NCBI GenBank assembly: GCA_024244645.1
Contig: JAAEOH010000065.1
Coordinates: 5,882 to 69,881 of the forward strand
Source of the DNA: Hyphomicrobiales bacterium
GTDB taxonomy: Bacteria; Pseudomonadota; Alphaproteobacteria; Rhizobiales; Rhizobiaceae
Length of the DNA: 64,000 bases
Direction of reading: 5' to 3'
The notes below the pieces were generated by a model. It did not search any database, was not told the origin of the DNA, and was given only the letters and a program-made list of their open reading frames with translations. A program made the translations under genes and the position numbers. Within the stretch, counting starts at the first letter, position 1. Each line of letters begins with the position of its first letter. Below are positions 18,243 to 38,912 of this stretch, in pieces.

Positions 18243-18905
18243 CTATTTGACTTTGGTAAGGGCCTCTTGGATGTTGATGAAATGCCTTATCCGGTCGACT
18301 ATTTCCTCAACCGCCATGGTGGCCATGTTGTAGGGGAAGACCGCCAGTCCCTTGCCGTCAGTGCCAACCAGATAGAACGAGGCCGTGTGGTCCATCCAGT
18401 AATCTCCGTCGTCTTCGCCCCCATTATTGTTCAGCTCTGACCTGTTGTAGTAGACACGAAAACCCTCAGCGGCCTCGGCGATCTGCTGCGGCGTTCCAGT
18501 AAGGCCGATCAACTTGGGATGGAAATAGGCCACATACTCCTTCAACACTTCGGGCGTATCGCGCTCAGGATCAATGGTCACGAAGATCGGCTGCACCCAG
18601 TCGGCTTGTTCACCCAACAAGGCCATTGTCTCGCTCATGGTCTGCAGACTGGTCGGGCACACATCCGGACAATATGTGTAGCCGAAATTGATGAGCATGA
18701 ACTTGCCACGGTAATCCTCGTCGGTGACCATCTTGCCGGTATGATCGGTAAGCGTGAACGGAGCCGCAGGCGGGAACATGGTTATGGGATCGACATTCTC
18801 CGCCTTCCCGATCTGCTCATCGGTGTACAGGAGATAGCCTACGGCTCCGCCGGTGAGGCAGAGGCCCACTATGATGATAAGGATGGCGAAGCGGAATTTT
18901 CTAAT
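18243..18905 (-). CDS. SCO/SenC copper chaperone
   Basis: FGYTYCPDVCP (CxxxC) and MDHT; N-terminal anchor; start is either ATT 18905 or GTG 18869. Confidence 0.92.
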   Translation of the reverse strand: MRKFRFAILIIIVGLCLTGGAVGYLLYTDEQIGKAENVDPITMFPPAAPFTLTDHTGKMVTDEDYRGKFMLINFGYTYCPDVCPTSLQTMSETMALLGEQADWVQPIFVTIDPERDTPEVLKEYVAYFHPKLIGLTGTPQQIAEAAEGFRVYYNRSELNNNGGEDDGDYWMDHTASFYLVGTDGKGLAVFPYNMATMAVEEIVDRIRHFINIQEALTKVK

Positions 18906-18937
18906 CCGTTAATCCTCCCTTTTACCAGCTCTGAGCG

Positions 18938-19465
18938 TTAGAGCAGCTTGTCCAGCTCATATTTCAGGAGCGGCTCGTTGACGGCGCCGGCGTGGATGTA
19001 AGTGATGAAGCCTTTCCGATCGACGAAGAACGTGAAGGGCAGACCGCGAATGCCGTAGTCTTTCTTTATTGTTCCTGTCACATCGAGGCCGGTGGGATAG
19101 GTAATCCCGTATTTTTTCATATATTGCAATGCTTTGGTCTCCGTGTCGTCGACCCCAACACCGACGAACATTACGTTTCTGCCGGCAAACTCCTGATAGA
19201 CCTTTTCAAGATCGCTTACCTCGACCCCGCATGTGGTGCACCAAGAGGCGAAGAAATTGATCACAACGGGATTTCCCTTGTGATCGCTCAGCCGAAAACT
19301 GCCGCCGTTGTCAAACCTCGTCAGTGTGAAATCGGGCGCCAGACTTTTGGCGCCGCCCTCCTCTTCGCGACAACCGTAAACGAGGAGCATAATGCAAAGA
19401 AGAAGGATGAGCCGCTGTAATAATATTCGCGACGGAACCAGCATTGAGTCAATCACCTCTGCCAA
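18938..19465 (-). CDS. TlpA/ResA-like thiol-disulfide oxidoreductase
   Basis: NFFASWCTTC, GLPFTFFVD; lipoprotein-like N-terminus. Confidence 0.9.
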   Translation of the reverse strand: MAEVIDSMLVPSRILLQRLILLLCIMLLVYGCREEEGGAKSLAPDFTLTRFDNGGSFRLSDHKGNPVVINFFASWCTTCGVEVSDLEKVYQEFAGRNVMFVGVGVDDTETKALQYMKKYGITYPTGLDVTGTIKKDYGIRGLPFTFFVDRKGFITYIHAGAVNEPLLKYELDKLL

Positions 19466-19565
19466 TACACCTCGTCAGGTTCTCAGGATGAATTCCACAA
19501 CGATCAGGTCAGAATTCCTCACAAATATCAGCACAATAAACTACCAACACAGATCGCTGCTGTCT

Positions 19566-19579
19566 TTGATATACATCAA
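19566..19579. promoter_or_regulatory. Perfect FNR/FixK/DNR/NnrR-type box
   Basis: TTGAT-ATAC-ATCAA between divergent operons; TAGATT at 19602-19607 fits class II (-41.5) geometry. Confidence 0.8.
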
Positions 19580-19643
19580 GTGCGGCGTCCATGATTCAGG
19601 CTAGATTAAGGCCCGATTGGAGTTTGAATGGACGGTACCGTGC

Positions 19644-20066
19644 ATGAGCTCAATTAATTGCAATTTGCTCGCCGCAATGATTGTGGCAGTTGGAGTGTTC
19701 ACCGTAAACCCGGCGAGCGCTGAGGAGAAATCCGACCCGACAAGTGCCACCGCGTGGAGCGCCGGAAACGTATCCGGGGCCGGCAATTTCATGAGCTACT
19801 GCTTGCCTTGCCATGGTCCAGAGGGAAAAGGTGACGGCGTGCTGTCCGAAAGCCTTGATGTGAAACCCAGGGACCTTTCGAACGCTGGTTTCTTGGCGCC
19901 GAAGCCAGACGAATATCTATTCAAGGTCGTTAAGACTGGTGGCGCCGCAGTGGGCCTGACAGAGAACATGCCTCCCTTCGTGGACCAGTTGAGCGACGAG
20001 GAGATTGTCAACATCGTTGCCTACCTTAGAAAGGAGGTTTGCAAGTGTGAGTTCAAGAAGAACTAG
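19644..20066 (+). CDS. Periplasmic monoheme cytochrome c
   Basis: Signal peptide, CLPCH, distal Met in MPPF. Confidence 0.9.
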   Translation: MSSINCNLLAAMIVAVGVFTVNPASAEEKSDPTSATAWSAGNVSGAGNFMSYCLPCHGPEGKGDGVLSESLDVKPRDLSNAGFLAPKPDEYLFKVVKTGGAAVGLTENMPPFVDQLSDEEIVNIVAYLRKEVCKCEFKKN

Positions 20067-20100
20067 AGCATATGCCTTGATTGCGGACGGTTTTTGGTGA

Positions 20101-20892
20101 ATGTGGAAATTTGCCATGCGATCAAAGGTTGTGATATCCGGGCTTGTCCTGGCCTTACTGATGTTACCTCCATTGCTGGTGGAAGCGCGGGCAGACAACG
20201 GTCTGTCGATCGGCCGGATGCGGGTCATGATATGGCCCGAATACGACGATCCAAGCGTCCTGGTGGTTTATGACGGCCGCTTTACCGACGATTCGAAATT
20301 CCCCACCACCACTGATTTTCTTATCCCCAAAGGTGCGATCATCAACGATGTCTGCAGCCTGACGCCGGGTGGCCAACATATCTGCCAGCTTTACGATATC
20401 AGTGAGGGTGACGACCATGATACGGTGCACCTGTCTCTGCCGTTCTCGAATTTTTACGTCAGCTTTCATCTTGCCCCCGTCGACCTCGAAACCGCGAAAA
20501 GACAATTAAGATACGCAATTAGGGCCAATCATCCGATCGATAATATGGAGGTGGATATCCAGCAGCCTCTGCGTTCGACAGAATTTAGCGTTTCTCCTGC
20601 CGGCGGTGAGGCATCGAAACAAAAAGACTTCTATCACCTCACTTACGCCCTCGAGGACATCGAAAAGGGCGAGGACCGGGTTTTCAAGATCGACTATGTA
20701 AAGGAAACCAGGGAACCGTCGGTCGACGTCAAGTTTGCCTCCATGACCGGCCGCCGAGTCTGGGGCTCACCCTATGCGACCCAACGGAAAGTCAAGACCA
20801 TAGTCTACATCATCTTTGCAACCGGTGTCTTGATGGTATCGGCCGCCGCGCTCTGGATCATGATGGGAAGGCGAAGGAAAGGACCGGCGTGA
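20101..20892 (+). CDS. Exported, C-terminally anchored hypothetical protein
   Basis: Signal peptide, WPEYDDPSVLVVY, CSLTPGGQHIC, C-terminal TM helix. Confidence 0.75.
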   Translation: MWKFAMRSKVVISGLVLALLMLPPLLVEARADNGLSIGRMRVMIWPEYDDPSVLVVYDGRFTDDSKFPTTTDFLIPKGAIINDVCSLTPGGQHICQLYDISEGDDHDTVHLSLPFSNFYVSFHLAPVDLETAKRQLRYAIRANHPIDNMEVDIQQPLRSTEFSVSPAGGEASKQKDFYHLTYALEDIEKGEDRVFKIDYVKETREPSVDVKFASMTGRRVWGSPYATQRKVKTIVYIIFATGVLMVSAAALWIMMGRRRKGPA

Positions 20893-21326
20893 TGGCCGTG
20901 GTCATGGTTGAACCATTCAAGACACGGTACAGCCTTTTCGCGGCGCTGCTACTGACGGTTATGGTTCTTTTGCCCGATCGCGCTTTCGCGCTTACGGTCG
21001 GCGAGGTGGCGAGGGACCTCGCCTGCCCCTGCGAATGCCCGCTGATACTGGAAGACTGCAACATGACCTGTGGTCTCGATTGGAAGGAGGAAATCGGCGA
21101 AATGGTCAAGGCAGGCAAGTCCAAGGAGGAGATCATGACCTACTTCATCGCAACATATGGCGAAGAAGCGCGCCTCACCACACTGCAAAAGATCGATGGC
21201 AAGATTTTCCAGTACACCAGAGGGTTTGACACCACTGATTGGGCGATGTTGTGGACCGGTGTCGCATTCTGGGCGCTCACTATCATGGGTGGCATCTATT
21301 ATGGCGTCAGAAGATATTTCGCCTGA
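20889..21326 (+). CDS. CcmH/NrfF-like cytochrome c maturation protein
   Basis: EVARDLACPCECPLILEDCNMTC..IGEMVKAGKSKEEIMTYFIATYGE; TM helix. Confidence 0.7.
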   Translation: MMAVVMVEPFKTRYSLFAALLLTVMVLLPDRAFALTVGEVARDLACPCECPLILEDCNMTCGLDWKEEIGEMVKAGKSKEEIMTYFIATYGEEARLTTLQKIDGKIFQYTRGFDTTDWAMLWTGVAFWALTIMGGIYYGVRRYFA

Positions 21327-22182
21327 GTTCCCGTCTATAGCGAGACGGCTCTTACTGAGTTTCGCCATATTTGCGCTCATCTTGGGAATGGTCGCGTTTG
21401 TGGCCTTCGTCTACATGATCGAACCCGGCAACCGGCGGCAATATCTGGCGACCTCGGGCAAACTGCTGTTGCACAGATACAATCTTATTGACAAGCTTTC
21501 CGAAGCTGAAACCCGGCAACTTTATCTTTCCACCTGCACCAGGAAGTGCCACAGCAGGGACGTAGTCGAATTGACTCCCCGCACAGCACTGGAATGGGAG
21601 CAGATCGTCGCTCGCATGAAGAAGCAGGCGAAGGCCAACATTACCGGAACCCAGGCCCAGACGATTATCGAATATCTGCAAAGAATGTATCTTTCCAACG
21701 TGCCAACGATCTTGCCTGAGGCGACCATGCGTTTCGTTAAAAAGCATTTGTGGCGGCTGGATTTCGGTGAGAGCGATCTCTATTTCGACATCATCTATCT
21801 GCCCCAGGCGTACCGCCACCTGATGCCGTATTTGGCGTTCAGGAGCAAACCGCGGCACAGCGACGAGGCTTTGTTCATCGTCTACGTCAATACCCACACC
21901 GGCATCCTCCCGCGCTGGAACCTTGCCGACATCGCCACCATCAGGGTTGATGGAGACCGAGCAGCGAATGCCGCTTCCTGGCAGGTCCTTTATGAGGATG
22001 GGCAACAACACCACAAGCAGGGGATTTTGACCTTTCCGGCCGTCGAAGTCAGAGACGGCGAACCGGTCGATTCTCTGGAAATCGTAATCAAGCCACCGGC
22101 CATGCGGGAGCGGATTTTTCACTGGAATCTGCCGGTCCCGGAACACCCGCTGGCGGCCAGTACATCCGAAGAAAGGGGCTAG
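21301..22182 (+). CDS. Membrane-anchored putative cytochrome c (CX3CH) with a C-terminal extra domain
   Basis: TM helix, CTRKCH..WEQIVARM; probable start ATG 21301 (ORF track 21157). Confidence 0.6.
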   Translation: MASEDISPEFPSIARRLLLSFAIFALILGMVAFVAFVYMIEPGNRRQYLATSGKLLLHRYNLIDKLSEAETRQLYLSTCTRKCHSRDVVELTPRTALEWEQIVARMKKQAKANITGTQAQTIIEYLQRMYLSNVPTILPEATMRFVKKHLWRLDFGESDLYFDIIYLPQAYRHLMPYLAFRSKPRHSDEALFIVYVNTHTGILPRWNLADIATIRVDGDRAANAASWQVLYEDGQQHHKQGILTFPAVEVRDGEPVDSLEIVIKPPAMRERIFHWNLPVPEHPLAASTSEERG

Positions 22183-22185
22183 ACC

Positions 22186-22671
22186 GTGAATAAGCGTGCA
22201 CTGATCCGCTTACTTCTCATGCTTTTGTTGCCGTTGGCCCATGGCTGCGATGAAGAGATCAAGAAGGAATTTGCCGCAGACTTCACCCTGCAATTATTCG
22301 ATGGCCGGACATTCACCTTGAGCAAACACAAGGGTGAAGCTGTGGTCGTCAACTTCTTCGCGTCGTGGTGCATTCCATGTAGGGCCGAGGCGTCGGCGCT
22401 GGAGGCGGTCCATAGGGAATATTTCGAAAAGAAGGTGATCTTTCTGGGTATCGCTATCAAGGATACAGACACCGGCGCCCGGGGCTTTGTTAAAAAATAT
22501 GCGCTGAGCTTTCCCACGGGGCTCGATAAGGAACAAAAGCTCGGGCGCATCTTTGGCGTATATGGGCTTCCTACGACCGTCTTCATCGATGCAACTGGCT
22601 TTATCAACTACACCCACTCAGGGGCAGTGACAGGGGAACTGATCAAACATGAATTGGACAAATTACTTTAG
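22186..22671 (+). CDS. TlpA-like thiol-disulfide oxidoreductase
   Basis: NFFASWCIPC, GLPTTVFID; paralog of 18938-19465. Confidence 0.9.
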   Translation: MNKRALIRLLLMLLLPLAHGCDEEIKKEFAADFTLQLFDGRTFTLSKHKGEAVVVNFFASWCIPCRAEASALEAVHREYFEKKVIFLGIAIKDTDTGARGFVKKYALSFPTGLDKEQKLGRIFGVYGLPTTVFIDATGFINYTHSGAVTGELIKHELDKLL

Positions 22672-23170
22672 CTTTCCGGCTGCGGTAGTTTTCCTCACCC
22701 TATTGTTGACGGGGTGTTTGGAGGAAAACACGCTCCCGCTCAAGATTGGTGCAAAGGCTCCGCCCTCAACGTTGACCCTGCTCAACGGCGAGACCAGGGA
22801 AGTTCCGGATGATCTCGGGCAAGCTCAGGTCATCACCTTCATGTCCTCTTGGTGCCCATGTTCGAACCAATCCATTCCGCTCATGAAGGAGGCATTCGAA
22901 CAGTACAACAGCGGGCCGCAAAGCAAGATCGCATTCTTGATGATCGGCTTCCAGAGCCCGCGGAGCAAGTTCGAGGACATCGCCAGCAAGTGGCAGGTTC
23001 CATTTCCTGTGGGGTACGATGATGGCGACAAGATCGCTCGCGCGTACGGTATTACGGCGCCGCCAACAACCGTTTTCATCGATACGGAAGGCAATGTAAT
23101 AAGAGTTTTCTATGGCAATATCAAAGACATAGAGGAGGAATTCCTCCAGTGGGTGGGCGAGCTGTTGTGA
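22649..23170 (+). CDS. TlpA-like lipoprotein
   Basis: LLTGC lipobox, FMSSWCPCS (CxC variant), APPTTVFID. Confidence 0.8.
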   Translation: MNWTNYFSFPAAVVFLTLLLTGCLEENTLPLKIGAKAPPSTLTLLNGETREVPDDLGQAQVITFMSSWCPCSNQSIPLMKEAFEQYNSGPQSKIAFLMIGFQSPRSKFEDIASKWQVPFPVGYDDGDKIARAYGITAPPTTVFIDTEGNVIRVFYGNIKDIEEEFLQWVGELL

Positions 23171-23871: not shown

Positions 23872-24083
23872 GCAGGCGCGCGAACAAGCTTCCGCCTGGT
23901 TTCAAAAAACAAGCATTCGGCGTTGTCCTCGCCGTCCTCGGTATCATCGATACCGTTATGAACCTCATAACCGGCATCACGCTGGACGGCTTTTTCCTGT
24001 TTCTGATTGGCGCCGGCATTGTGCTTTTCGTTGTCGGGACCATACAACGGCGAAAGCACCGCTACCAGGCCACCTGCGGATAG
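23868..24083 (+). CDS. Small two-TM hypothetical protein
   Basis: ATGA coupling to ccdA; two hydrophobic helices. Confidence 0.6.
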   Translation: MSRRANKLPPGFKKQAFGVVLAVLGIIDTVMNLITGITLDGFFLFLIGAGIVLFVVGTIQRRKHRYQATCG

Positions 24084-25222
24084 AACCAGTGCTCGACCAT
24101 CCACTGGCTATCGTCCACCAGGGGTGTGGTATTCCGATCCTTGAAGGCCTTCGGAGGTGTACCCATTCGGGCTCCCATTGAGACGTTGTGGCATGAGTTG
24201 CAGCCCAGGGTCGGGGATTCGCGAGTTTCCACGTAAAGCAGGCCGAAGGGCATGGCGGCAACGAAGACGATCACGAAGGAAACCACCACACCGGCCAGCT
24301 TTATCTTACCGTGTTTTCTACCAGGTCGCGACAGGAGGCTGCTATATGGCCAGCTGCCGATTTCGGCGTCCCCCCTCCTTTTATTGCTGCCTCTGAAAAA
24401 GAAGGGCAGCAAGATCAGTATGATCAGCACGGTCAGCGGCAGACCGATACCAAGGAACGCCGCCATGGGGGCTTCGAAACTCATGAAAGGGCGCAGCAAG
24501 AACAGAATATACCATTCAGGTGCCGGTAAATATGTACCCTCGAGCGGCATCGGGATAACGTCTGGATCTTCTGTCGGCATGGGAATGTAAATCGCCAGCG
24601 CGGCGATAGCGACGAAGAAGGGCACACTTATCACGGCGTGCTTTGCAATGTATTTGCCGATACCGGCCTTTCTCTTGCGCAACACCGCAAGGATGTGGAA
24701 GTCGATGAGGATGTAAGTGATCACCGGCAGGATCACCGCGTGGGCGACAAAATTCCGACTAAGCGTAAATGCGTCAATCAGGAACGCTTTCAATACCGGT
24801 CCGGCGAGCGGCACGCTGCCCAGATAGTTGGGCACCATCTCCATGAACCAATAGGCCTTCCATTCCCAGGGCAGGATGAAACCGGTAACCAGCAGAGCCA
24901 AGATTGGCGGTATCAGTAGCCCGCCGGTGAGCCAGGAAATTCTGCACTGATAGTTCAGGAAGTCCTTTCTGAACAGACTTCTTGCGACGTGCACGACAAT
25001 CGCGGCGAAAATAAAAAATGCCAGCCAGCGGTGACTATCCCTAATCCAGGCACCAATGTTTAAGCCGCGATAAAGGCTTTGGACGCTGGCATATGCCTGC
25101 TGCAAATCGGGCTGATAGAACAGGGCCAAAAAAATGCCGGTCAGAAATTGCAGGATGAGCAGAATAACCGCGACACCGCCAAAATAGTGACGCCAGTGAT
25201 AGCGCTCTATTTTTGTTTTCAT
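24062..25222 (-). CDS. Fused cytochrome b (b6 + subunit IV-like) with a C-terminal c-heme
   Basis: Four heme-b His (DSHRW, VHVAR, AHAVILP, DFHIL), PEWY, CNSCH. Confidence 0.85.
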   Translation of the reverse strand: MKTKIERYHWRHYFGGVAVILLILQFLTGIFLALFYQPDLQQAYASVQSLYRGLNIGAWIRDSHRWLAFFIFAAIVVHVARSLFRKDFLNYQCRISWLTGGLLIPPILALLVTGFILPWEWKAYWFMEMVPNYLGSVPLAGPVLKAFLIDAFTLSRNFVAHAVILPVITYILIDFHILAVLRKRKAGIGKYIAKHAVISVPFFVAIAALAIYIPMPTEDPDVIPMPLEGTYLPAPEWYILFLLRPFMSFEAPMAAFLGIGLPLTVLIILILLPFFFRGSNKRRGDAEIGSWPYSSLLSRPGRKHGKIKLAGVVVSFVIVFVAAMPFGLLYVETRESPTLGCNSCHNVSMGARMGTPPKAFKDRNTTPLVDDSQWMVEHWFYPQVAW

Positions 25223-25225
25223 CGA

Positions 25226-26530
25226 TTACTCTCCATCTTTTTGCAGCAACACAAAACCTTCACCCATTTGATCCCCTTCAACGCGATAGAGATGCGCACG
25301 TTTGATCGGTGTTCCGTTTGCTGCCCAGCGACTCACGCCGGTTACCCCTTCGACTTCTTTCAGATTGACCAGAGCATCTCTAACCGTCTGGCTTTGCAGC
25401 GAGTCGGTAGCCTCAAGCGCCCGGGAAAGAAGGCCGAAGGCGTCATAAGCCAGGGCTGTAAATCTGTCGGGAACGGCGTCATTTCTGGCTATTTGCTCCG
25501 CCACGAAATCCTGCACCAGACGTGAGGGGCGATCGGGCGCGAAAGTGGTGTACAGCAAAGTGCCACGCGTAGCTTGCCCGCCCTGCTTGAGGAATTGTTC
25601 ACTGAACAGGTCTTCGCCGCCGATCAGGGGCAGCATGAGACCGTCATCCCTGGCGGCCTGTGCCAGTTGCGCAGCCTCCTGGGCCTCGCCCGTGAAGATG
25701 ATGGCCTGCAACCCCTCCGACCCGGCCTTCAGAGCCGTCACGACCTTGCCAATGTCTGTTTTCCCCGAAAACGTTTCATATGTGTCGGCCTCGACCAGAA
25801 TCTTGCCGCCGTGCCTTGGCACTGCTTTTTTGAACTCCGAAGCGATGCTCAGCGAGTAGTCGTAAGACGATGAGGTGACCAGGGCGAAATTCCTGTAACC
25901 CAGCTCGTTGGCAGCGTAACCGAGCATTTCGTCAATGGCGATTTCGTCAGGCAGGGAAAAGTGAAAGATGTAGCTGCCGCTTCTGCTGATTTTTCGTCTC
26001 GTCCCGATGGATATGAATACAGTTTGCGATTGGCTGGCCAGGTGGGTCGGCACGAATGTCGACCAGCCGGTCGGAGAAGAAAATATCGCCACGACGTTCT
26101 TTTCGATCAGCGCCGAGGCGATATCGGCGGTTTGTCCGGACCCGCCGCTGTTGTCGTGGTGAATGACTTCGATCTTCTGGCCACGCAAACCGCCCTGGGC
26201 ATTAAAATGGTCGGCCGCCATGACAATACCGGCAAGTACGGCCAGACCAAATTTGGCCTCAGCGCCGGTTTCCGGGCCGATCACCCCGACGATCAGCGCC
26301 CGTTCCTTTTCTTTTTCTTTCCTGCGCAATGACTTTGCTGCCGTGCCTTGTGGAGTGGCCTGGGTGGAGGCCAGCCATTCTGGATTGCCGGCCTTTAGCG
26401 GAGGAGGCTCCCCGCTGCGATTGCTCAGGGTCTCGAAGAAGACAACGGCAAAGACACCTGCGATGCCAATCAGGGAAATCAGAACTAGCTTGAAACGCAT
26501 CTGGCGAAACACTGGACCGCTAGCCTCCAT
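25226..26530 (-). CDS. Membrane-anchored branched-chain amino acid-type binding protein (LivK/Peripla_BP_6 fold)
   Basis: VGVIGPETG..GIVMAADHFNAQGGLRGQKIEV; AYDAF; EGVTG. Confidence 0.85.
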   Translation of the reverse strand: MEASGPVFRQMRFKLVLISLIGIAGVFAVVFFETLSNRSGEPPPLKAGNPEWLASTQATPQGTAAKSLRRKEKEKERALIVGVIGPETGAEAKFGLAVLAGIVMAADHFNAQGGLRGQKIEVIHHDNSGGSGQTADIASALIEKNVVAIFSSPTGWSTFVPTHLASQSQTVFISIGTRRKISRSGSYIFHFSLPDEIAIDEMLGYAANELGYRNFALVTSSSYDYSLSIASEFKKAVPRHGGKILVEADTYETFSGKTDIGKVVTALKAGSEGLQAIIFTGEAQEAAQLAQAARDDGLMLPLIGGEDLFSEQFLKQGGQATRGTLLYTTFAPDRPSRLVQDFVAEQIARNDAVPDRFTALAYDAFGLLSRALEATDSLQSQTVRDALVNLKEVEGVTGVSRWAANGTPIKRAHLYRVEGDQMGEGFVLLQKDGE

Positions 26531-31485: not shown

Positions 31486-32430
31486 TCAAAATCCCTTCTT
31501 GACCTTTGCATCGACTTCTTCAGGCTGCTTGCGCAAGCCGCCTCTAACGTAACCACCGCCCTTAAGCGCGCCTTCGCCACGCCCGGCTAGCGATAATTCG
31601 GTTTCCTCCTGGGCATCGTTGAAGTCGTCACTCTGGTTCGCCGTCAATGCATCAATATCGCCGGCAATCGGTTTGAAAGTCGTTTTCGGGTTCAGATATT
31701 CCTCGACTGTCTTCGGCGGTTTGGTGTCCGCCATCATCCGAATCCAGGCGACGACGTTCCAAATGTCCTGATCCTGCAGCAAATTGCCCCAAGCCGGCAT
31801 CGACGAAGACAGGTAGACTTCTTCACCACCGCCTTTGATCACTGTGAACAGCTGCAGATTAGACTTCTTGTTCATGTAGTCACCGTCGGTCAGGATACGC
31901 GGACGCGGCTCGATCTCCGAAGCGCTCGGCCCATCACCCTGCAAGCCCCAGCCGTGGCAGGCGATGCAATAGACGTAGTACCACTGTTTACCTTCATTGG
32001 GATCCGCACCCGGGACCAAGGTGGTTTTGAACGCCGGGGACCAATTGTTGGTCCATTGGTTGTAGACCGATTCACCCTCAGCCGGTTTTTCGACACGGTC
32101 CCACAATTCGGTTTTGCCGCCCTTACCTCCGTAGCCACTATCGCCCCGCGAGGGGGTGGTACCCTCGGTCCTTTTGCCGACGCCGGTCAAATAGTCGAAA
32201 GGAGCGACGCCATAGGTACTACCGGACACGCCCGAACTCATCAGCTCGGCTTCATCATCATAGGCCGCCGCGGCCGCTTCCAGTTCTGCTTCGGTGCGAA
32301 CCGGGCACACCACTTTGGTGCCGTCATAAAGCCTGCACCTTTCGGTCTCCGCGAACGATCCCGAATATGTCGACGCCGCAATTGCGGCACCCAACGCCAC
32401 CGCCCATTTGATCCTATTTTTTTGCTGCAT
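31486..32430 (-). CDS. Periplasmic monoheme cytochrome c with a long N-terminal extension
   Basis: CIACH, MPAWG; first 29 aa identical to the NosZ-like protein. Confidence 0.88.
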   Translation of the reverse strand: MQQKNRIKWAVALGAAIAASTYSGSFAETERCRLYDGTKVVCPVRTEAELEAAAAAYDDEAELMSSGVSGSTYGVAPFDYLTGVGKRTEGTTPSRGDSGYGGKGGKTELWDRVEKPAEGESVYNQWTNNWSPAFKTTLVPGADPNEGKQWYYVYCIACHGWGLQGDGPSASEIEPRPRILTDGDYMNKKSNLQLFTVIKGGGEEVYLSSSMPAWGNLLQDQDIWNVVAWIRMMADTKPPKTVEEYLNPKTTFKPIAGDIDALTANQSDDFNDAQEETELSLAGRGEGALKGGGYVRGGLRKQPEEVDAKVKKGF

Positions 32431-32672
32431 TCTTTAGTTCTCCCTGTATATCACGATCAGCTTCCAGAATTGGTCAGCTGGCTCGCCGTTTGGCTAATCA
32501 AGGGCAGCGGGATTTGGTGCATGGACGCACTTCCCACTATAGCTAGAACGATTGTCAGCATAATTCTGTTTTCAGCCGAGCAACTTGACTTAAATCAATC
32601 CACGCCTCACGCGTGCTCTCGCGCGACGCTATGTCGCATGGACCACGGTCATCCGCGATACCAACGAGCAGC
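32345..32672 (-). repeat. Direct repeat copy 1 (promoter + RBS + signal-peptide codons)
   Basis: 328 bp, 3 mismatches seen versus 38827-39154. Confidence 0.95.
32585..32598. promoter_or_regulatory. FNR-type box
   Basis: TTGAC-TTAA-ATCAA; TATGCT -10 on the minus strand (32562-32557) at class II spacing. Confidence 0.7.
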
Positions 32673-32764
32673 GCTATAAAGAGTAGGCACGGCAAGACAA
32701 CTTCACGATTTACGTTAGCTTATCGCAGGCCCATTGGACTTCGCGGGTGATCAGGACGCGAGAC

Positions 32765-33781
32765 CTATTTCAGCCACAGCTCCAGAATATCTTCGCCATG
32801 CAGTTTGTTGAGTGTGTTCTGCGAAATATCAGTGAACCAGATGTCGCCATTACAACCTACCGCGATGTCGTTTGGCTCTGTTTTTCCCAGCGCAACCTTT
32901 ACCTCCAGGAGTCTCCTGGAAACCGGGTTCATGGCTCCAAGCTTGCCTACATGGCCTAGCGTAAACAGGACATTTCCAAGCTGATCGATGTCCAATCCCT
33001 CGACGACACCCCGGACGGGGAGAACAAAGCCCTCAAATTGCCGCTTCGAAGGGTTGAACATCATCAATTTGGCGTTTCTGCGGCCGCCAAACCAGATCAG
33101 CCCGTTGCGATCGATAACAATATCCTTGGGCACCAGGAACGGTTCCGGGAAGTCAAACTCCTCGAATTTTCCGCTGAACGAATCGAACGAAGCCAATTTA
33201 TTCCCTTGGGATTCGATGAACCATATGATGCCCTTAGGGCTGACCGCGAGACCTGTCGGTTGGCTGTTGGACGTGGGGATTGGATATTCCAAGAAGCTCT
33301 CGGTCAGGGGATCAAATCTTCCGAGATTGTTGCCGAAGAACTCAGTGAACCAGATAACACCGTTATTATCGCTGCCGATCCGGCGTGGAACGCTGTCGAT
33401 GGTCGGGACTTCATACTCCTTGAAAGATTTGTCGGCCGGATCGAAGCGGCCTAATTGATTGGCGTCCTGCTCGAGGAACCAAACCACACCGGCGCTGTCT
33501 ATGGTGAGGTCGGAGGGGAAGCTCCTGTGAGTCGGGATGCCGTGTTCAGTGAAGGCCTTTTTGTCTGGGTCGAATTTAGTCAGTTGGTTTGCGTTGGCTT
33601 CCAGGACCCAGATAATGCAGTTTGGGCCGATGGTGATCCTGGACGGCAACGCGTTGGGCGTCGGCACCTCATAGGTTTCGACGTTCCAGCCAAGCTCGCT
33701 GGCAGCCCCAAACGTGAAAGCAAGCAGGCTGGCGAGGGCCGCGTGAGCGATAGCTTTGCTCCTCATTGCCCGGTCCGCCAC
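32765..33781 (-). CDS. Exported Vgb (virginiamycin B lyase)-fold beta-propeller
   Basis: Signal peptide; repeated P..I....G.IWF.E...N.LGRFDP....F.EY.IP blades. Confidence 0.85.
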   Translation of the reverse strand: MADRAMRSKAIAHAALASLLAFTFGAASELGWNVETYEVPTPNALPSRITIGPNCIIWVLEANANQLTKFDPDKKAFTEHGIPTHRSFPSDLTIDSAGVVWFLEQDANQLGRFDPADKSFKEYEVPTIDSVPRRIGSDNNGVIWFTEFFGNNLGRFDPLTESFLEYPIPTSNSQPTGLAVSPKGIIWFIESQGNKLASFDSFSGKFEEFDFPEPFLVPKDIVIDRNGLIWFGGRRNAKLMMFNPSKRQFEGFVLPVRGVVEGLDIDQLGNVLFTLGHVGKLGAMNPVSRRLLEVKVALGKTEPNDIAVGCNGDIWFTDISQNTLNKLHGEDILELWLK

Positions 33782-35052
33782 CGCCGGAATATGAACAGTA
33801 CCGCAAAGAGTGATGCGCCGGAGACGATCAGTAGGGCCGCAACGGCGTAGCCTGTGAGAGAAGTCGAATATTCCTCCGGAATAGAGTCTGAAGCGGCGGT
33901 CGTTTTTACATCGACTGTGGCTGCGGCCATGGCTGCTCGTGCCTTGGTCATGGAAAGCACCCCCAACCTTTTTGCCTCGGTGCCGGTTTCAGAAAACCAA
34001 AGGCGATCACGTTTATCGTCGATTGCCATGTCTCCAGGCAGACTGGCATAGGTCGGGATGTCGAATTCCTTGAACTGCGCCGAAGCGGGATCGAAGATGC
34101 CGACTTTGTTGCCCATATACTCCAGAAACCAGATTTCGCCGCTACCACTGGCCGCGATGGCATTAGGAAGGCCTCCGGCGGTCGGAATCAATGCCTCATA
34201 AAACCTTTCCCCTTTGGGATAAAACACGCTGAGACGGTTGGTTCGCAGCTCGACAAACCAGACCCTGCCCGCTCCATCCACGGTCAGCGTTTCCGGATTA
34301 GCAAAGCGTGTTGGAATTTCATATTCGCTGAATGCGGTGCTGGCAGGAACAAACTTGCCGATCTTATTGGCGTTGGCCTCGGCAAACCAGATGGCATCGC
34401 TGCCGTCGATAGCAATCCCCTTGGGATAGCTGTGCAGCGTGGGAATCGGGTATCCTTGCAAACCGGACCCACCTGGCTCGAAGCTGTAGATCTTGTTTTC
34501 TTTAGGAGACAGAAACCAAACCAGCCCCTTTCGGTCGACTACCAGGTCATCCGGCGAAACATTTCCCTGGTTCGCACCGATCTCGCGAACCGCGTCCATA
34601 TCTGCAAGGAGATATCTCTTAAATGAGCCGGTGGCCGGGTCGAACTGACCGAGGAATCCGGTACCATCATCGGAATTGGCCCATCGACGAACACTGAACC
34701 AGACGCTTCCGCCGGGCGCAAGGGTGATGCGTGATGGCCCAACGTTGCCCCAGTCGGAAGGCAGGGGGTGAGCCTCGAACGTCTTTCTCTCGGGGTCGAA
34801 CATGACGATATTCTTCCCGACTTTCTCGGCAAACCAGACGTTTCCGCTGGGGCCCACCGCTATGGAGTGCGGGGAACTGATTGCGTCTGGGACCACGAAT
34901 TCCTGGATCACCGGATCTGTCGTCTGGGCGTCAGCCTGGCCCCCTAACGGCCCTGCGAGCAGTAAAATGCAGAAAAGCAAACCTGCCGCCCAGGGCCCCG
35001 GATCGGTCCGTGCCGCAAAAAAATGCCTCCGAAGGATGCGACAGATTCGCAT
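33763..35052 (-). CDS. Exported Vgb-fold beta-propeller with a C-terminal TM anchor
   Basis: Same blade repeats; signal peptide from ATG 35052; C-terminal hydrophobic helix followed by RRWR. Confidence 0.85.
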   Translation of the reverse strand: MRICRILRRHFFAARTDPGPWAAGLLFCILLLAGPLGGQADAQTTDPVIQEFVVPDAISSPHSIAVGPSGNVWFAEKVGKNIVMFDPERKTFEAHPLPSDWGNVGPSRITLAPGGSVWFSVRRWANSDDGTGFLGQFDPATGSFKRYLLADMDAVREIGANQGNVSPDDLVVDRKGLVWFLSPKENKIYSFEPGGSGLQGYPIPTLHSYPKGIAIDGSDAIWFAEANANKIGKFVPASTAFSEYEIPTRFANPETLTVDGAGRVWFVELRTNRLSVFYPKGERFYEALIPTAGGLPNAIAASGSGEIWFLEYMGNKVGIFDPASAQFKEFDIPTYASLPGDMAIDDKRDRLWFSETGTEAKRLGVLSMTKARAAMAAATVDVKTTAASDSIPEEYSTSLTGYAVAALLIVSGASLFAVLFIFRRWRTGQ

Positions 35053-35057
35053 GGGAT

Positions 35058-35735
35058 CTACCACGTCATCGTCGGTTCGTAGTAATGCCTCAATTGCCAG
35101 TTCGCGTCCTTGTACGATTGCGCTCCATCCGTCGCGCCGGCCCGGTAACCGCCGACGTTGATCTGTAACTGCCGGGATCCCAGATAGTATTCGGCCATAT
35201 CGGCAGGCGGCAACGCCTGCCTTACTCCCATCATCGGGTTGTGGCATGAAGCGCAACCGGTGGTCTTGGCTGGATAGCCAGTGCCGATCACGCTGGCCGT
35301 CATGCTCACCCAAATTGCCAGGGCGCCGATACCCATCAGCAACTTCACTCCAGTCGACAATCTTTTGCCGGCGGTCTTCTTGCGGCCGAAGACAAACGGC
35401 ATAGCGAGCCCCGCCAGAAGAATGCCGACAGGGGCCCAGAAAGTTCCCAGCTGCCGCCATATGGAGGCCTCGCCGGTCAGGTACCAGAACGGCTGGAAGA
35501 CGAAGATAAGGTACCACTCAGGGGCTGGAACATACTCCCCTTCGGTGGGAAGCGGCGGCATGTTGACGTCCGTCGGTACGCGATAAAAATAAGCCAAACC
35601 GATAACCAGGGCGATGGTGATGGTGCTGACGGCTACGGTCTTTAGCGCGTGGCGCGGCCAGAATCGGTGGAATTCCTGCGGATACGGTGGATCGTATTTT
35701 GGATCACGAATGAGGTCCGGTTGCTCGTCGGTCAT
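35058..35735 (-). CDS. Cytochrome b subunit IV (PetD/QcrC-like) fused to a c-heme
   Basis: FWPRH, PAPEWY, CASCH. Confidence 0.85.
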   Translation of the reverse strand: MTDEQPDLIRDPKYDPPYPQEFHRFWPRHALKTVAVSTITIALVIGLAYFYRVPTDVNMPPLPTEGEYVPAPEWYLIFVFQPFWYLTGEASIWRQLGTFWAPVGILLAGLAMPFVFGRKKTAGKRLSTGVKLLMGIGALAIWVSMTASVIGTGYPAKTTGCASCHNPMMGVRQALPPADMAEYYLGSRQLQINVGGYRAGATDGAQSYKDANWQLRHYYEPTMTW

Positions 35736-35756
35736 GCCTTGCTCTCCACACCGTTC

Positions 35757-36389
35757 CTATAATGGTTCGGATATGCCGTGCTTTTTCACCATCTTGAAAT
35801 GGAAACTGAGGAGCACGAATAGTATCAGCGGCAAAATCACGATATGCGTTATGAAGCTCCGGTAGATGGTAAAGGTGTTGAGCACGAAACGTTCCATGTA
35901 CTCGCCGATAAGTGGCCAGGTAGCGACATAGTCGACCCAGATTGCATAGGACCAATAGGCACGCCAGTCCCAGGGCAGGACAATGCCGCTGAGTACAAAC
36001 AGGAAAACCACCAGGAACTGGAGCACGCCGGAAATCCAGTTGAGTTCCCGGGGATTGTGGTACGCCTTGCGATAAAACACAGTGACCAGGTGGGTGAAAA
36101 CCGCGGCCAGTAACAGTGTCGCGCCCCACCTGTGCATGTTCCTGGCCAGCCAGCCGAGTGGGACCTCGTTGCTCATTAGATCGATACTGTTGAGGGCCTC
36201 TTTGGGATCCGGCGTATAGAAGAACAGCATGAAGACGCCAGTGATCACCTGAAGTATGATGATCAGCAGGGAAATGCCACCAAAACAGTAGAAGAAAGAA
36301 TGCGCCGGCACCGCTTGTGCCTTCTTTGCGTCAGTCCATTGCCTGATGCCGGTTCTTGCGTCCAACCAGTCATAGATTTTCGCTATCAT
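35757..36389 (-). CDS. Cytochrome b6-like (PetB/QcrB) subunit
   Basis: FYCFGG (heme ci Cys), NMHRW, THL, THIVILP, SFHF. Confidence 0.9.
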   Translation of the reverse strand: MIAKIYDWLDARTGIRQWTDAKKAQAVPAHSFFYCFGGISLLIIILQVITGVFMLFFYTPDPKEALNSIDLMSNEVPLGWLARNMHRWGATLLLAAVFTHLVTVFYRKAYHNPRELNWISGVLQFLVVFLFVLSGIVLPWDWRAYWSYAIWVDYVATWPLIGEYMERFVLNTFTIYRSFITHIVILPLILFVLLSFHFKMVKKHGISEPL

Positions 36390-36991
36390 TGGCTTTTGGC
36401 TTTACTGTTGCTCCCACCGGAAGCAGTATCCAAGATTTCCAGCTGGTTGGTTTTCGCGATGCTTTCGCGATCCTGATCGTCCGTGTCGCCCCTGAAATCG
36501 AGTTTCCAGGTATTTCTTTCCTGGTCCAGGTTCAGGTGAACCGGGGTGCGCACGGCGTAAATGCCGCCGAAACTGGATGGCATTTTATATTCAATCGTGA
36601 CGATCGCATGTTTGTCCTGGACCCTACTCTCGATGATCTCTGCCTTGAAACCGGGGGGATACCTGTTGACGATCCCGAGGAATAGGGCCTGGTCGGTTCG
36701 CGATTGGTCGCCGCTCGTTAGCTTGTAGGCTTCGTTGATCAACAGGTTACCGCCCCTGATCTTCGCCTCGGAGACATATTCGTAGAATCTCTCAACCACC
36801 GAGACAGCAGTTTCTTCGGGTAGTGGTGTTTCCTGATACCCAAAATTGATAGCAGCGAAGCCGGCACCGGCCAGCAGCAAAGCCGTGAACAAACCAAAAA
36901 AAAGAGCCTTCATGCGCAAATCTTGCAACATCTCTCGTCCGGATTTCCGCACAGTCCAAAATTCCTTGTCCTGCGGCGGTACTGCGCCCAA
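36386..36991 (-). CDS. Membrane-anchored periplasmic hypothetical protein
   Basis: Single TM helix (start may be ATG 36913); no Cys; ATGA-coupled to cytochrome b6. Confidence 0.7.
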   Translation of the reverse strand: MGAVPPQDKEFWTVRKSGREMLQDLRMKALFFGLFTALLLAGAGFAAINFGYQETPLPEETAVSVVERFYEYVSEAKIRGGNLLINEAYKLTSGDQSRTDQALFLGIVNRYPPGFKAEIIESRVQDKHAIVTIEYKMPSSFGGIYAVRTPVHLNLDQERNTWKLDFRGDTDDQDRESIAKTNQLEILDTASGGSNSKAKSQ

Positions 36992-37098
36992 GCCGGGTGC
37001 CGAGCTTGCCGCTGTCGTTTCGTTCTCCGGTGCTGGCCGGTAACGCTTAAGCCTTGCAGCGGTGAAGCGCCCCTACCGGATCTACTAGCCGTGTCGCG

Positions 37099-37120
37099 CC
37101 TCCCGTTTTGCAACGGGAGG
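37099..37120. terminator. Hairpin downstream of the nosZ-like gene
   Basis: CCTCCCGTT-TTGC-AACGGGAGG; no U-tract, so it may be a stabiliser rather than a terminator. Confidence 0.5.
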
Positions 37121-37160
37121 ATGGGACGCAGCAAGCCGTTCACGCGAGATCTCCGGCAGA

Positions 37161-38912
37161 CTAGAGTCCCTTTGCTCGCGGTGCGATCTCAAGCTCGTCG
37201 GGAGAGACAAGACCAGGCAGAGTTTGCGCCTTGTCATACTCGCCCACGGATAGATTCGAGGCCTCGCCCTGAGGATCGTCGACGAAGAACGACCCACGCA
37301 TTTCCAGGTGCAAAGGACCGCAGAAATGCTGGCAAAATATTGCGTACTCGCCTGCGATGTCCGCTACGAACTCGGCTACTGCCGTCACCCCGCGCGGTGC
37401 GTCCAGGTTAGTCCGCAGACCATAGGGCCCGTAAATCACGAAACCCATGGTGACATCCGGATTCTTGGTAATGCCCGCTGCTCGGTCGATGTTGGTAACG
37501 AAGATGCGTACCTTGTCGCCCTTGTTGACGCGGATTTGTCGTGGGATATAGCCGTAACTAAAGGCTTTGACATGGATTTCCTTGACCCCGTCCTTCGTCC
37601 GGATACCTGGCTTCTCGTTGGATTTAGGCAGCAGATAGACCTTGGCCTTGGCTCTATGGGCGGGACGAATGTCGATGGCGGCTTCAGTAATCAGGCCGCC
37701 TTTCTCAGCCTGGCCCATGTTCCAGCGTTTTATCTGTGAGGCGTAGATCGACTTGGCGTTGTGAGGCTCGCCGTCCACCGGGACGATCTTCAGCGTCTTA
37801 CCGTAGGTCGGGCTCTCTTCCCGGGCATCCCACAGTTCGAAGTTAACCGGATAGACCAGGCCGGTCGGATTGAACAGTCCAGTCGAAAATTTGTTCAGCG
37901 AGATAACATAGTCGTTGTTGGCGCTGATCGCGATGTGGCCGGTCCGGTAATGGGTCGGAATCTCATCCACCACCTCGAGTTTCTTCAGATCGATCTTCAC
38001 GTTGGAATCCGAGACGAAGCAACTTTCGTACGCGTATTTGGAAGTCAGGCCTTCCGGGCTATCCTTGCCTGGTTCGTAAGTACCGCCGTCTTTGTCGTAG
38101 ACATCCATCACCGAGTGCAATGGACCGGCGCAGGTTGGGATAACCTTTTTTACCGCCAGTTTTTCGACGTCGATCACGGTCATTGTTGCCGACAGTTTGT
38201 CGCTGACCAGAACCAAGGTGCTCTCGGGAATGACATCGGTGCCGTGTGGGTTCTTGCCGACCGGAATTTCCTTGATGAACTTGAACGGGTTGGTCGAGAA
38301 CACGCCTACCGTGGAGTGGTAATAATTACCTGAAAAGACGTAGCGGCCTTTTTTGTCGACATCAAGGTAATCAGGGGCGCTGGGCGCGGGACCCCAATCG
38401 ATAATTTCGGTCTTGCCGGTGGCAATCTCGGTTTTCGACATCTTGCCGGAATATTCCCCGGTGCCGTAGAGGAACTTACCGGTATCGTCCAGCGCAATGT
38501 GGTGAACACCAAACGGAAACGGCAGTGAAATCAGACGTTCGAGGAAACCGGTCTGCAGGTTGATAACGCCGATTGTATTGGCACCCTTGTCGTTGACGTA
38601 CAGATATTTGCCGTCCGGAGTGAGATTCTTATTGCCGGCGTTGGTGCCGCTGAATACCGGCTCGTGCAGATCGACGCCAACGTCGATGTGACGGTACGTC
38701 CGCAGGCTGGGAAGCCCGATGATTGCAACCCTGCCATCAAGGCCGCCGGCGTTGTACAGTAACATCGGGTCCTTTGTCGGATGATCTGTTGCTTCTACTT
38801 CAACGTTCTGCCAATCAGGTAAATCCGTCTCCGCGAACGATCCCGAATATGTCGACGCCGCAATTGCGGCACCCAACGCCACCGCCCATTTGATCCTATT
38901 TTTTTGCTGCAT
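37161..38912 (-). CDS. nosZ: Divergent nitrous-oxide reductase-like multicopper protein (beta-propeller + cupredoxin), Sec signal
   Basis: AGGLDGRVAIIGLPSLR, DGKYLYVNDK, KNPHG, GPLH, HYRTGH, LNKFS, EPH, CQHFCGPLHLEM; ligand substitutions described in findings, so activity is not established. Confidence 0.85.
   Translation of the reverse strand: MQQKNRIKWAVALGAAIAASTYSGSFAETDLPDWQNVEVEATDHPTKDPMLLYNAGGLDGRVAIIGLPSLRTYRHIDVGVDLHEPVFSGTNAGNKNLTPDGKYLYVNDKGANTIGVINLQTGFLERLISLPFPFGVHHIALDDTGKFLYGTGEYSGKMSKTEIATGKTEIIDWGPAPSAPDYLDVDKKGRYVFSGNYYHSTVGVFSTNPFKFIKEIPVGKNPHGTDVIPESTLVLVSDKLSATMTVIDVEKLAVKKVIPTCAGPLHSVMDVYDKDGGTYEPGKDSPEGLTSKYAYESCFVSDSNVKIDLKKLEVVDEIPTHYRTGHIAISANNDYVISLNKFSTGLFNPTGLVYPVNFELWDAREESPTYGKTLKIVPVDGEPHNAKSIYASQIKRWNMGQAEKGGLITEAAIDIRPAHRAKAKVYLLPKSNEKPGIRTKDGVKEIHVKAFSYGYIPRQIRVNKGDKVRIFVTNIDRAAGITKNPDVTMGFVIYGPYGLRTNLDAPRGVTAVAEFVADIAGEYAIFCQHFCGPLHLEMRGSFFVDDPQGEASNLSVGEYDKAQTLPGLVSPDELEIAPRAKGL

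Follow-up and report, generated by a model that had tools for sequence, protein, structure and literature searches.

The DNA stretch analysed here (the window) comprises 64,000 nucleotides (nt) of contig JAAEOH010000065.1, positions 5,882 to 69,881 of the forward strand, in GenBank assembly GCA_024244645.1 of a Hyphomicrobiales bacterium of the Rhizobiaceae. Positions 18243 to 38912 of the window carry a gene cluster built around a 583-amino-acid (aa) protein that we assign below to the nitrous oxide (N2O) reductases of the NosZ type. A six-frame listing of open reading frames (ORFs), together with Pfam and NCBIfam scans, resolved the cluster into 23 intact reading frames that form three blocks. 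Block A, on the minus strand (38912 to 32765), contains the gene of the 583-aa protein (L-nosZ), a gene for a 201-aa protein, a split cytochrome b and two Vgb_lyase-family beta-propellers. Block B, also on the minus strand, runs from 32430 to 24062, from a cytochrome c gene through a fused cytochrome b gene. Block C diverges from a region at about 19466-19616, with genes for a TlpA-like protein and SCO1/SenC on the minus strand and the genes from a cytochrome c through CcdA on the plus strand. An earlier reading of this DNA made from the sequence alone (the sequence-only reading) had described about 24 genes at this locus; almost every item of its inventory is present where it had been placed, and the count is 23.

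The 583-aa protein (37161-38912, minus strand) matches NF052460, the NCBI model of the lactonase-type, clade III NosZ (L-NosZ), over model positions 1-480 of 480 with 803.6 bits (E 4.8e-242), against an equivalog cut-off of 700 bits. The models of clade II (TIGR04246) and clade I (TIGR04244) gave 171.5 and 121.5 bits, respectively, both far under their cut-offs of 625, so that a canonical NosZ of either clade was rejected. In addition, all five motifs used for calling the clade are present (C527QHFCGPLHLEM538, G135VHH138, P222HG, G263PLH266 and E382PH384); this five-motif filter is that of the discovery study, in the form in which it is quoted in a passage of bioRxiv 10.64898/2026.07.10.737647. 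Because the NF052460 score exceeds the cut-off and all five motifs are present, we assign the protein, on its sequence, to the lactonase-type clade III NosZ, the very clade that the sequence-only reading had named as a possible home for it. The signal peptide is of the Sec type, the N-terminus (MQQKNRIKWAVALG) lacking the twin arginine of a twin-arginine translocation (Tat) signal. Pfam recognises Lactonase/YNCE, nos_propeller and Cupredoxin_1 domains, in agreement with an architecture of a seven-bladed propeller followed by a cupredoxin domain, as in canonical NosZ. An AlphaFold2 model based on 31 family members (pLDDT 80.8, pTM 0.83) was compared with the PDB using Foldseek, and 50 of the 50 best matches were NosZ (E about 1e-31), with a whole-chain TM-score of about 0.49 and a root-mean-square deviation near 16 Å; the PDB copy used contained no structure of a clade III enzyme among the matches. 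The NosZ fold claimed for this protein from its sequence is thus borne out.

The comparison with clade I, II and III models and the phylogeny that had been proposed as a check were both carried out. In a maximum-likelihood tree, nine canonical and 28 L-type sequences are separated by a branch of 1.53 substitutions per site with an SH-aLRT support of 100; the clade III side of this tree is anchored by NF052460-positive sequences rather than by the reference set of He et al. The window protein falls outside clades I and II, deep within the L-type clade and beside an alphaproteobacterial metagenome-assembled genome (MAG) from an oxygen-minimum zone. The family is large: clustering at 90% identity gave more than 240 clusters among 8,000 candidates scored, relatives occur in at least 123 GTDB species, and canonical NosZ in the search of the representative library reached only about 118 bits. 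Database entries usually go by the names "beta-propeller fold lactonase family protein" (NCBI) or "nitrous oxide reductase" (JGI). The suggestion that this might be an unrecognised N2O reductase lineage has been overtaken by the literature: the family was described by He et al. (Nature 2025;646:152) and is referred to as clade III or L-NosZ in papers that cite this study, a curated NCBI model exists and surveys make use of it. The enzyme family is therefore not new, and the window cluster is a further representative of it. One relative, P0121 (1139 aa), is an L-NosZ-like protein with a long extension fused to its C-terminus; the CuA cysteines and several CuZ motifs are missing from it (GVNN, DPN), and it is probably a non-catalytic paralogue.

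The metal sites were mapped by HMMER alignment to P. stutzeri NosZ and by a MAFFT alignment in which canonical and divergent sequences were included. Although the window protein shares only about 20% identity with canonical NosZ, six of the seven CuZ histidines of the P. stutzeri enzyme align directly with histidines of L-NosZ (H129, H178, H326, H382, H433 and H494 with H83, H137, H223, H266, H326 and H384, respectively). The remaining one, H130 of the DxHH pair, is a glutamate (DLHE). The position of the canonical GxHG motif reads GVHH, which apparently supplies the second histidine, so that seven histidines are still present. The same DxHE/GxHH pattern is found in P0123, the relative with the highest score (914 bits on NF052460; 46% identical to the window protein), and from these sequences it appears to be a general clade III pattern. 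In the canonical CuA centre, as found in NosZ and COX2, copper is bound by two cysteines, two histidines, one methionine and a backbone carbonyl. L-NosZ has kept the Cys, His and Met ligands of the CuA loop (C527, C531, H535 and M538). The first CuA histidine, H583 of P. stutzeri, a gating histidine for which many mutant structures exist, is replaced by M489 (codon 37446-37448), and the site thus departs from the canonical ligand set. M489 is invariant in 31 subclade sequences, including those from Nitrospinota and Desulfobacterota. This substitution belongs to the subclade and not to clade III as a whole, because the other clade III representatives, P0123, P0128, P0130 and P0136, like all canonical enzymes, have a histidine at this position. 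The subclade also has an extra invariant histidine of its own, H199 (NYYH), and is invariant for the CuZ-related motifs GxHH, PHG, GPLH, PGH and EPH, as well as for the CuA loop C-x2-F-C-x3-H-x-E-M.

The genes that follow L-nosZ on the minus strand of block A encode candidate electron carriers and two propellers. Immediately downstream, as is always the case in its relatives, lies the gene of a membrane-anchored protein (36386-36991; 201 aa here, about 176-201 aa in the family) with no Pfam or NCBIfam match. The cytochrome b is split into a b6-like N-terminal half with conserved H86, H100, H182 and H197 (35757-36389; Pfam Cytochrome_B, 125.6 bits) and a subunit IV-like C-terminal part fused to a periplasmic mono-haem c domain, C161xxCH (35058-35735). 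The latter is homologous to the C-terminal part of the fused cytochrome b of block B (24062-25222), in which the N- and C-terminal parts are followed by a C-terminal haem c site (C341xxCH); no Rieske partner accompanies the fused protein. Two cytochrome b/c modules, one split and one fused and each with a CxxCH motif, are thus present, as had been read from the sequence. The matches of the cytochrome b genes to the NCBIfam models of b6 and ExtP are all under cut-off. The two beta-propellers match Pfam PF24684; one (about 33763-35052, 144.9 bits) has a signal peptide and a C-terminal membrane anchor, and the second (32765-33781, 152.4 bits) is periplasmic.

Block B, likewise on the minus strand, starts with a 314-aa mono-haem cytochrome c (31486-32430; Pfam Cytochrome_CBB3, C155xxCH), followed by a membrane-anchored 181-aa protein with a conserved CxxCH and a second CxxC (YCSRCGPPF; 30797-31342). 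Next come an ATP-binding cassette (ABC) ATPase of the GldA/DrrA/NosF type (29859-30800), a GldF-like ABC-2 permease (29080-29862; Pfam ABC2_membrane_2/3), a GldG-like ABC auxiliary protein (27470-29089; ABC_transp_aux and DUF7088 domains) and a DUF4340 protein (26520-27473; Pfam PF14238, 111 bits). The block is completed by a membrane-anchored periplasmic binding protein (Peripla_BP_6) without cognate permease (25226-26530) and the fused cytochrome b.

The minus-strand arm of block C encodes a TlpA-like thiol-disulfide oxidoreductase with a WCTTC motif (18938-19465) and a copper chaperone of the SCO1/SenC family with a CPDVCP motif (18243-18869; Pfam PF02630, 179.5 bits). On the plus strand, a mono-haem cytochrome c with a CxxCH motif (19617-20066, the true start probably being the ATG at 19644) is followed by a 263-aa periplasmic beta-sandwich protein with a C-terminal membrane helix and conserved C85, H93 and C95 (20101-20892), whose structural model (pLDDT 81) matches generic beta-sandwich domains such as those of OST1/ribophorin and the N-terminal domains of M1 aminopeptidases. 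Further downstream lie genes for a CcmH-like, cysteine-rich protein (20889-21326; Pfam CcmH, 35.5 bits; ACPCECP...DCNMxCG, with conserved C46, C48, C50, C57, M59 and C61), a membrane-anchored protein with a conserved CX3CH (CTRKCH), an HH pair and a weak match to the SorB-type cytochrome c family (21340-22182), a TlpA/ResA-like oxidoreductase with WCIPC (22186-22671), a TlpA/ResA-like lipoprotein with an unusual, conserved CxC active site, WCPCS (22649-23170), and a CcdA/DsbD-type (DsbD_TM) transmembrane thiol-reductant transporter with conserved C28 and C147 (23149-23871). The CX3CH, WCPCS and ACPCECP...DCNMxCG motifs of this biogenesis block are all kept in 14-15 orthologues; here and in the other blocks, haem and thiol motifs were taken straight from the translations before their conservation was checked among orthologues. 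The four further c-type cytochromes listed by the sequence-only reading can be recognised in the products of 19617-20066, 31486-32430 and 30797-31342, which have CxxCH, and of the ORF ending at 22182, which has CX3CH. The Pfam and NCBIfam scans likewise recover the two propellers, the GldAFG and DUF4340 set, the orphan binding protein, SCO, CcdA, three TlpA proteins and the CcmH-like protein. No dedicated model of an L-nos accessory protein was found in NCBIfam in the scan of the accessory genes.

To what extent this accessory set accompanies L-nosZ elsewhere was surveyed by tblastn searches with the 22 accessory proteins in 80 loci, each of which holds a relative of L-NosZ; these loci extend at most 10 kb to each side, and many of them end at contig ends. 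The 314-aa cytochrome c has a match in 61 of the 80 loci, each of the propellers in 40, the 201-aa protein in 38, the N-terminal half of cytochrome b in 35, the cytochrome b/c half in 32 and the 181-aa haem protein in 26. Numbers are lower for the ABC ATPase (22/80), the ABC-2 permease (17/80), the GldG-like protein (14/80), the DUF4340 protein (12/80), the binding protein (11/80), the genes of the TlpA/CcmH-like/CcdA block (12-14/80) and SCO (10/80). The order L-nosZ, 201-aa gene, cytochrome b, cytochrome b/c, two propellers, cytochrome c, 181-aa gene, ATPase, permease, GldG and DUF4340 recurs in Alphaproteobacteria, Gammaproteobacteria and Desulfobacterota, with shorter or rearranged forms in loci of Magnetococcales, Nitrospirota and Nitrospinota. 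The block encoding the 263-aa, CcmH-like and CX3CH proteins, two TlpA proteins and CcdA adjoins L-nosZ in Zetaproteobacteria, Chromatiales, Desulfobacterota and Nitrospirota, and the Peripla_BP_6 protein is syntenic in Magnetococcales, Nitrospirota and Nitrospinota. The accessory genes thus co-occur with L-nosZ homologues in a conserved order, which is the outcome that the sequence-only reading needed for its view that this NosZ system is non-canonical and has accessory genes of its own. The ratios of non-synonymous to synonymous substitution rates (dN/dS) lie between 0.05 and 0.18 for 11 genes compared with two relatives, with L-nosZ the most constrained and the 201-aa gene at 0.13-0.18; these values are approximate because dS is near saturation. 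Judged by these ratios, the accessory genes are under purifying selection.

Published clade III clusters lack nosDFYL and contain b-type cytochromes and ABC transporter parts (PMC13685413; PMC13477213). The window cluster fits this description, since the scans of all 23 genes detected b-type cytochromes and ABC parts and no NosD, NosL, NosR or NosX domain. It resembles other clade III L-NosZ systems (He et al.; NF052460) in equivalog score, the five motifs, fold and the Sec-type signal as well, and the taxa of its relatives (Nitrospinota, Nitrospirota, Desulfobacterota and Pseudomonadota) match those reported. Canonical NosZ of clades I and II, on the other hand, is accompanied by NosRDFYLX or NosBGHC accessory proteins, and where canonical clusters have the NosD beta-helix, NosL, NosR and NosX, the window has none of these and Rieske-less cytochrome b/c modules would supply the electrons. 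In a review of the field, clade III is described with MacB-type transporters, and how CuZ is built without NosDFYL is left open (PMC13685413). The locus of P0123 (L177; Logan SRR18683126 contig, 10001-21541) is of that type. Besides L-nosZ, it encodes a cytochrome b, a 191-aa protein homologous to the cytochrome b/c part of block A, a FixH/YtkA-like protein, three MacB_PCD/FtsX permeases, two ABC ATPases, a BNR/Sortilin-type propeller, a cytochrome c, a NapC/NirT-type cytochrome and DUF4418. The overlap between L177 and the window cluster is limited to L-NosZ and the two cytochrome b parts, apart from similarity of a generic kind among ABC ATPases and weak similarity among cytochromes c. Whereas P0123 has kept the CuA histidine, the subclade of the window combines the CuA methionine with ABC-2/GldG/DUF4340 proteins, two Vgb-like propellers, the binding protein and the TlpA/CcdA/SCO/CcmH-like block. 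Because the two loci differ in their accessory genes, the window represents a second cluster type and, on gene content, clade III has at least two accessory architectures, ABC-2/GldG/Vgb and MacB/BNR. The subclade of the window protein is a large one, with members from Alpha-, Gamma- and Zetaproteobacteria, Magnetococcales, Gallionellaceae, Desulfobacterota, Nitrospirota and Nitrospinota.

The ABC transporter set deserves closer comparison with NosDFY, since the sequence-only reading had recognised none of nosR, nosD, nosF, nosY, nosL and nosX. For nosR, nosD, nosL and nosX this stands; for nosY it was slightly too strong. A profile of ten permease orthologues matched P. stutzeri NosY in the PDB (7o0y_D) with E 0.0032 and 20.3 bits, the next matches having E > 0.5, and with the single permease sequence NosY was again the sole match (E 0.079). 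The ATPase matches NosF (7o0y_B) with E 4e-34; this match is not specific, because much higher scores are obtained with other ABC ATPases of the PDB, the ABCA type among them. Both matches agree with a 2026 lake-sediment study, in which "NosF/NosY-like homologues" without NosD or NosL were reported at some distance from clade III nosZ (PMC13477213). Our reading is that the ABC-2 pair is a putative distant relative of NosFY. The periplasmic partner would then possibly be the GldG-like and DUF4340 proteins instead of NosD, perhaps with the two propellers, as gene context suggests. DUF4340 proteins are the usual partners of GldG-type ABC systems, and the set has the same composition as the gliding transporter of Bacteroidota (ABC ATPase, ABC-2 permease, GldG-type auxiliary protein and DUF4340 partner). 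Unlike that transporter, it belongs to a non-gliding alphaproteobacterium and lies in a respiratory context, and its equivalog scores are all under cut-off (TIGR03522, GldA, 315.6 vs 402.6 bits; TIGR03518, GldF, 161.5 vs 288.5; GldG, 82.4 vs 389.85). The propellers reach 106-129 bits on the NCBIfam Vgb(A) and Vgb(B) models, against a cut-off of 600 (106-113 bits for the membrane-anchored one), so that the broad Pfam family alone applies to them, and no metal-binding residues are conserved in either. True gliding or streptogramin-lyase functions were rejected on account of these scores and the unfitting context. A literature search returned no relevant report linking DUF4340 or GldG with nosZ or nitrous oxide.

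FNR-type boxes had been noted at the promoters of the cluster, and our counts confirm them. Allowing one mismatch, TTGAT-N4-ATCAA occurs 10 times in the window, compared with 2.1 +/- 1.5 times in shuffled sequences, and seven of the 10 lie within 18243-39123. Three promoter regions carry a box: the divergent intergenic region of block C has a perfect one (TTGATATACATCAA, 19566-19579), and one-mismatch boxes lie in the promoter region of the second transcription unit (32431-32641, minus strand; box at 32598-32585) and in the promoter region and 5' untranslated region of L-nosZ (38913-39123, minus strand; box TTGATTTAGGTCAA at 39080-39067). Only 26 perfect boxes occur in the host genome, one of them just upstream of the cbb3 oxidase gene ccoN (C176:218375). 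Based on the small number of perfect boxes and the one before ccoN, the cluster seems to be wired into the low-oxygen FNR/FixK regulon of its host. Putative -10 elements start 22 nt after the perfect box (TAGATT) and 22 nt after the box upstream of L-nosZ (TATGCT), a spacing that would fit class II activation. A scan for sigma-70 promoters and terminators gave counts at or below shuffle expectation. A further perfect FNR/FixK box (14098-14111) lies outside the cluster, between a LysR regulator gene (13038-14015, minus strand) and a CoxSML-like molybdenum hydroxylase operon (14135-17765, plus strand).

The two one-mismatch boxes belong to the copies of a 300-nt direct repeat (32342-32641 and 38824-39123) with 99% identity, through which L-nosZ and the gene of the 314-aa cytochrome c have promoter, FNR box and leader in common and encode an identical 29-aa signal peptide. 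In two related loci (L009 and L010) promoter and signal are shared in the same way, with sequences of their own (in L010 over 235 nt at 93.6% identity). Because the sharing recurs with different sequences, it suggests concerted evolution, which would keep L-NosZ and its presumed cytochrome c donor co-expressed, rather than a one-off recent duplication.

Several features bear on the origin of the cluster. Its GC content is 54.6%, compared with 58.1% and 58.7% in the flanks. Remnants of IS6/IS240-family transposase genes lie in the same orientation on both sides, one at 39231-39724 (minus strand; Pfam DDE_Tnp_IS240) and a second, short one at about 17977-18072 (minus strand), and tblastx between the flanks detected 44% identity over 32 aa (E 1e-6); the cluster may thus have moved as an IS6 composite element. 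When one genome was sampled from each of 61 genera of the GTDB family of the host, the host alone passed the L-NosZ cut-off, and 13 other genomes had matches of the canonical NosZ type. The closest relatives of the window protein (90-92% identity) come from MAGs that bear the label Rhodospirillaceae or Alphaproteobacteria, and several of these MAGs originate in oxygen-minimum zones. The simplest reading of these sequence data is that the cluster was horizontally acquired. Beside the right-hand IS6 remnant lies a truncated C-terminal fragment of an enolase-superfamily gene (39785-40117, plus strand). In addition, a 54-nt direct repeat with 81% identity is found at 2168-2221, in the 5' end of dusA (1226-2329, minus strand), and at 40249-40302, about 38 kb away. 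It resembles the att sites of islands that target dusA, and the pair is consistent with a larger island; the GC content is lowered in the 18-40 kb part only, and none of the ORFs scanned encodes an integrase.

The host assembly (6.29 Mb, 436 contigs, 99% complete) was searched for canonical nos and other denitrification genes. No canonical NosZ and no NosL was found in it, the NosD-Pfam matches being generic beta-helix proteins away from the cluster, and nirK was equally absent from the genome. A nirS candidate on contig C371, the only match in the genome, was rejected, as this 26-bit match is a haem-less YncE-like propeller. The genome encodes three haem-copper oxidases, and because these read as aa3, bo3-like and cbb3, no NorB is present. 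Lacking these genes, the host looks from its genome like a non-denitrifying N2O reducer, a type of organism that is well known among carriers of clade II and clade III enzymes (PMC13477213). DusA, encoded on the same contig as the cluster, has its closest relative in Hoeflea (75% identity), followed by other Rhizobiaceae and Mesorhizobium, which identifies the host, by this marker, as a Hoeflea-like member of the Rhizobiaceae.

Taken together, we estimate at roughly 85% the probability that the window holds a complete clade III L-NosZ gene cluster, on a horizontally acquired segment with IS6 remnants, in a Hoeflea-like host without canonical nos, nirS, nirK and norB. In such a system, quinol would be oxidised by the Rieske-less cytochrome b modules, which have their own c-haem, and electrons would pass to mono-haem cytochromes c, a chain that agrees with the self-contained quinol-to-periplasm path proposed earlier. 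The 314-aa cytochrome c is the likely direct donor to L-NosZ, because it has the same promoter and signal peptide. From there, electrons would reach the CuA-type centre and then the CuZ-type centre held by seven histidines, where N2O would be reduced to N2. L-NosZ itself would be exported unfolded via Sec. In Bradyrhizobium, TlpA reduces both ScoI and the CuA cysteines of CoxB. By analogy with this TlpA-ScoI-CoxB pathway, CcdA, the three TlpA-like thioredoxins and SCO, which are encoded here together with a CuA protein, would keep the CuA cysteines reduced and load copper, and probably also help to mature the c-type cytochromes of the cluster. Unlike the Bradyrhizobium proteins, the set is dedicated to and syntenic with an N2O reductase, and it includes three TlpA paralogues (one of them with CxC), a Cys-rich CcmH-like protein and two uncharacterised proteins. 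Maturation of CuZ would fall to the NosFY-like ABC-2 pair with the GldG-like and DUF4340 proteins, possibly aided by the two propellers, in the role of NosDFYL, and the three FNR/FixK-type boxes would tie expression to the low-oxygen regulon of the host. The bolder proposal, that the window exemplifies a second, apparently uncharacterised clade III architecture in which a CuA methionine replaces the gating histidine and CuZ is matured by the ABC-2/GldG/DUF4340 proteins, the propellers and the TlpA/CcdA/SCO/CcmH-like module rather than by NosDFYL or a MacB set, is a tentative one, to which we give somewhat less than even odds.

Some points weigh against the reading of a complete clade III cluster. 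The first CuA histidine is an invariant methionine (M489) in this subclade, and N2O reduction with such a CuA centre is a candidate function. The match of the permease to NosY is weak, at 20 bits, and the roles of the ABC-2/GldG/DUF4340 set, the propellers, the binding protein and the uncharacterised proteins are putative ones, assigned from gene context. The placement of the host comes from one marker, DusA. Finally, three RNA runs from samples that hold this DNA gave zero contigs on the cluster; as the runs were small and the contigs are those of an assembler, this outcome is uninformative and no sign of silence. The first of these points leads to the question whether the subclade has kept the NosZ fold for another substrate or redox role, in which case the cluster would be a respiratory module for something besides N2O. 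An invariant H199, an accessory set unlike the MacB-type cluster of P0123 and weak matches of the cytochrome b genes to ExtP, a model for selenite/tellurite reduction, can be cited along with the CuA methionine for such a role. However, the CuZ-related motifs and the CuA loop are invariant, the curated equivalog cut-off is passed and the ExtP matches, being under cut-off, reflect general cytochrome b similarity; moreover, we know of no other substrate for any NosZ-type enzyme, and we regard a different substrate as quite improbable.

It is also unlikely, in our judgement, that the GldAFG-like ABC set, the binding protein and the propellers are mere neighbours with an unrelated job, for example in envelope or polysaccharide export. 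Their best scores are indeed with gliding-motility Gld and streptogramin lyase models, and the propellers have no conserved metal-binding residues. Nevertheless, the Gld and Vgb equivalog scores all remain far under cut-off, the same gene order occurs beside L-nosZ in at least six classes or phyla, the genes have their promoter in common with the cytochrome c whose signal peptide is that of L-NosZ, and NosY is the sole near-significant PDB match of the permease profile. As for the view that the host makes no use of the cluster, which a mobile island would carry along in a silent or decaying state, the intact state of 23 of 23 reading frames, the low dN/dS values, promoters with the same FNR/FixK box as host ccoN and the preservation of two promoter/signal-peptide copies at 99% identity make it very improbable. 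This holds despite the IS6 remnants and gene fragments at the flanks, the reduced GC content and the lack of RNA contigs, and the absence of enzymes that would make N2O in the host is no obstacle, given the known non-denitrifying N2O reducers cited above.

N2O reductase is, to our knowledge, the sole known biological sink of N2O. The cluster yields a well-bounded list of 22 conserved accessory candidates and a clear split of clade III into ABC-2/GldG/Vgb and MacB/BNR cluster types, and it provides a natural His-to-Met variant of CuA at the much-studied H583 position of the P. stutzeri enzyme. If not covered by He et al. (2025), the CuA-Met subclade and the ABC-2/GldG/Vgb/TlpA accessory architecture may be new. 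In addition, this IS-flanked system resides in a Hoeflea-like non-denitrifier, and growing and manipulating such a host may be easier than with the Nitrospinota and Desulfobacterota carriers, which are uncultured.

With regard to the taxonomic labels of other carriers, two contigs with an L-nosZ 68-75% identical to the window protein (L040 and L078) are binned in MAGs named Candidatus Moraniibacteriota or Patescibacteria. The gene content of L040 is also like that of Gallionella-type loci, and both labels are probably due to mis-binning.

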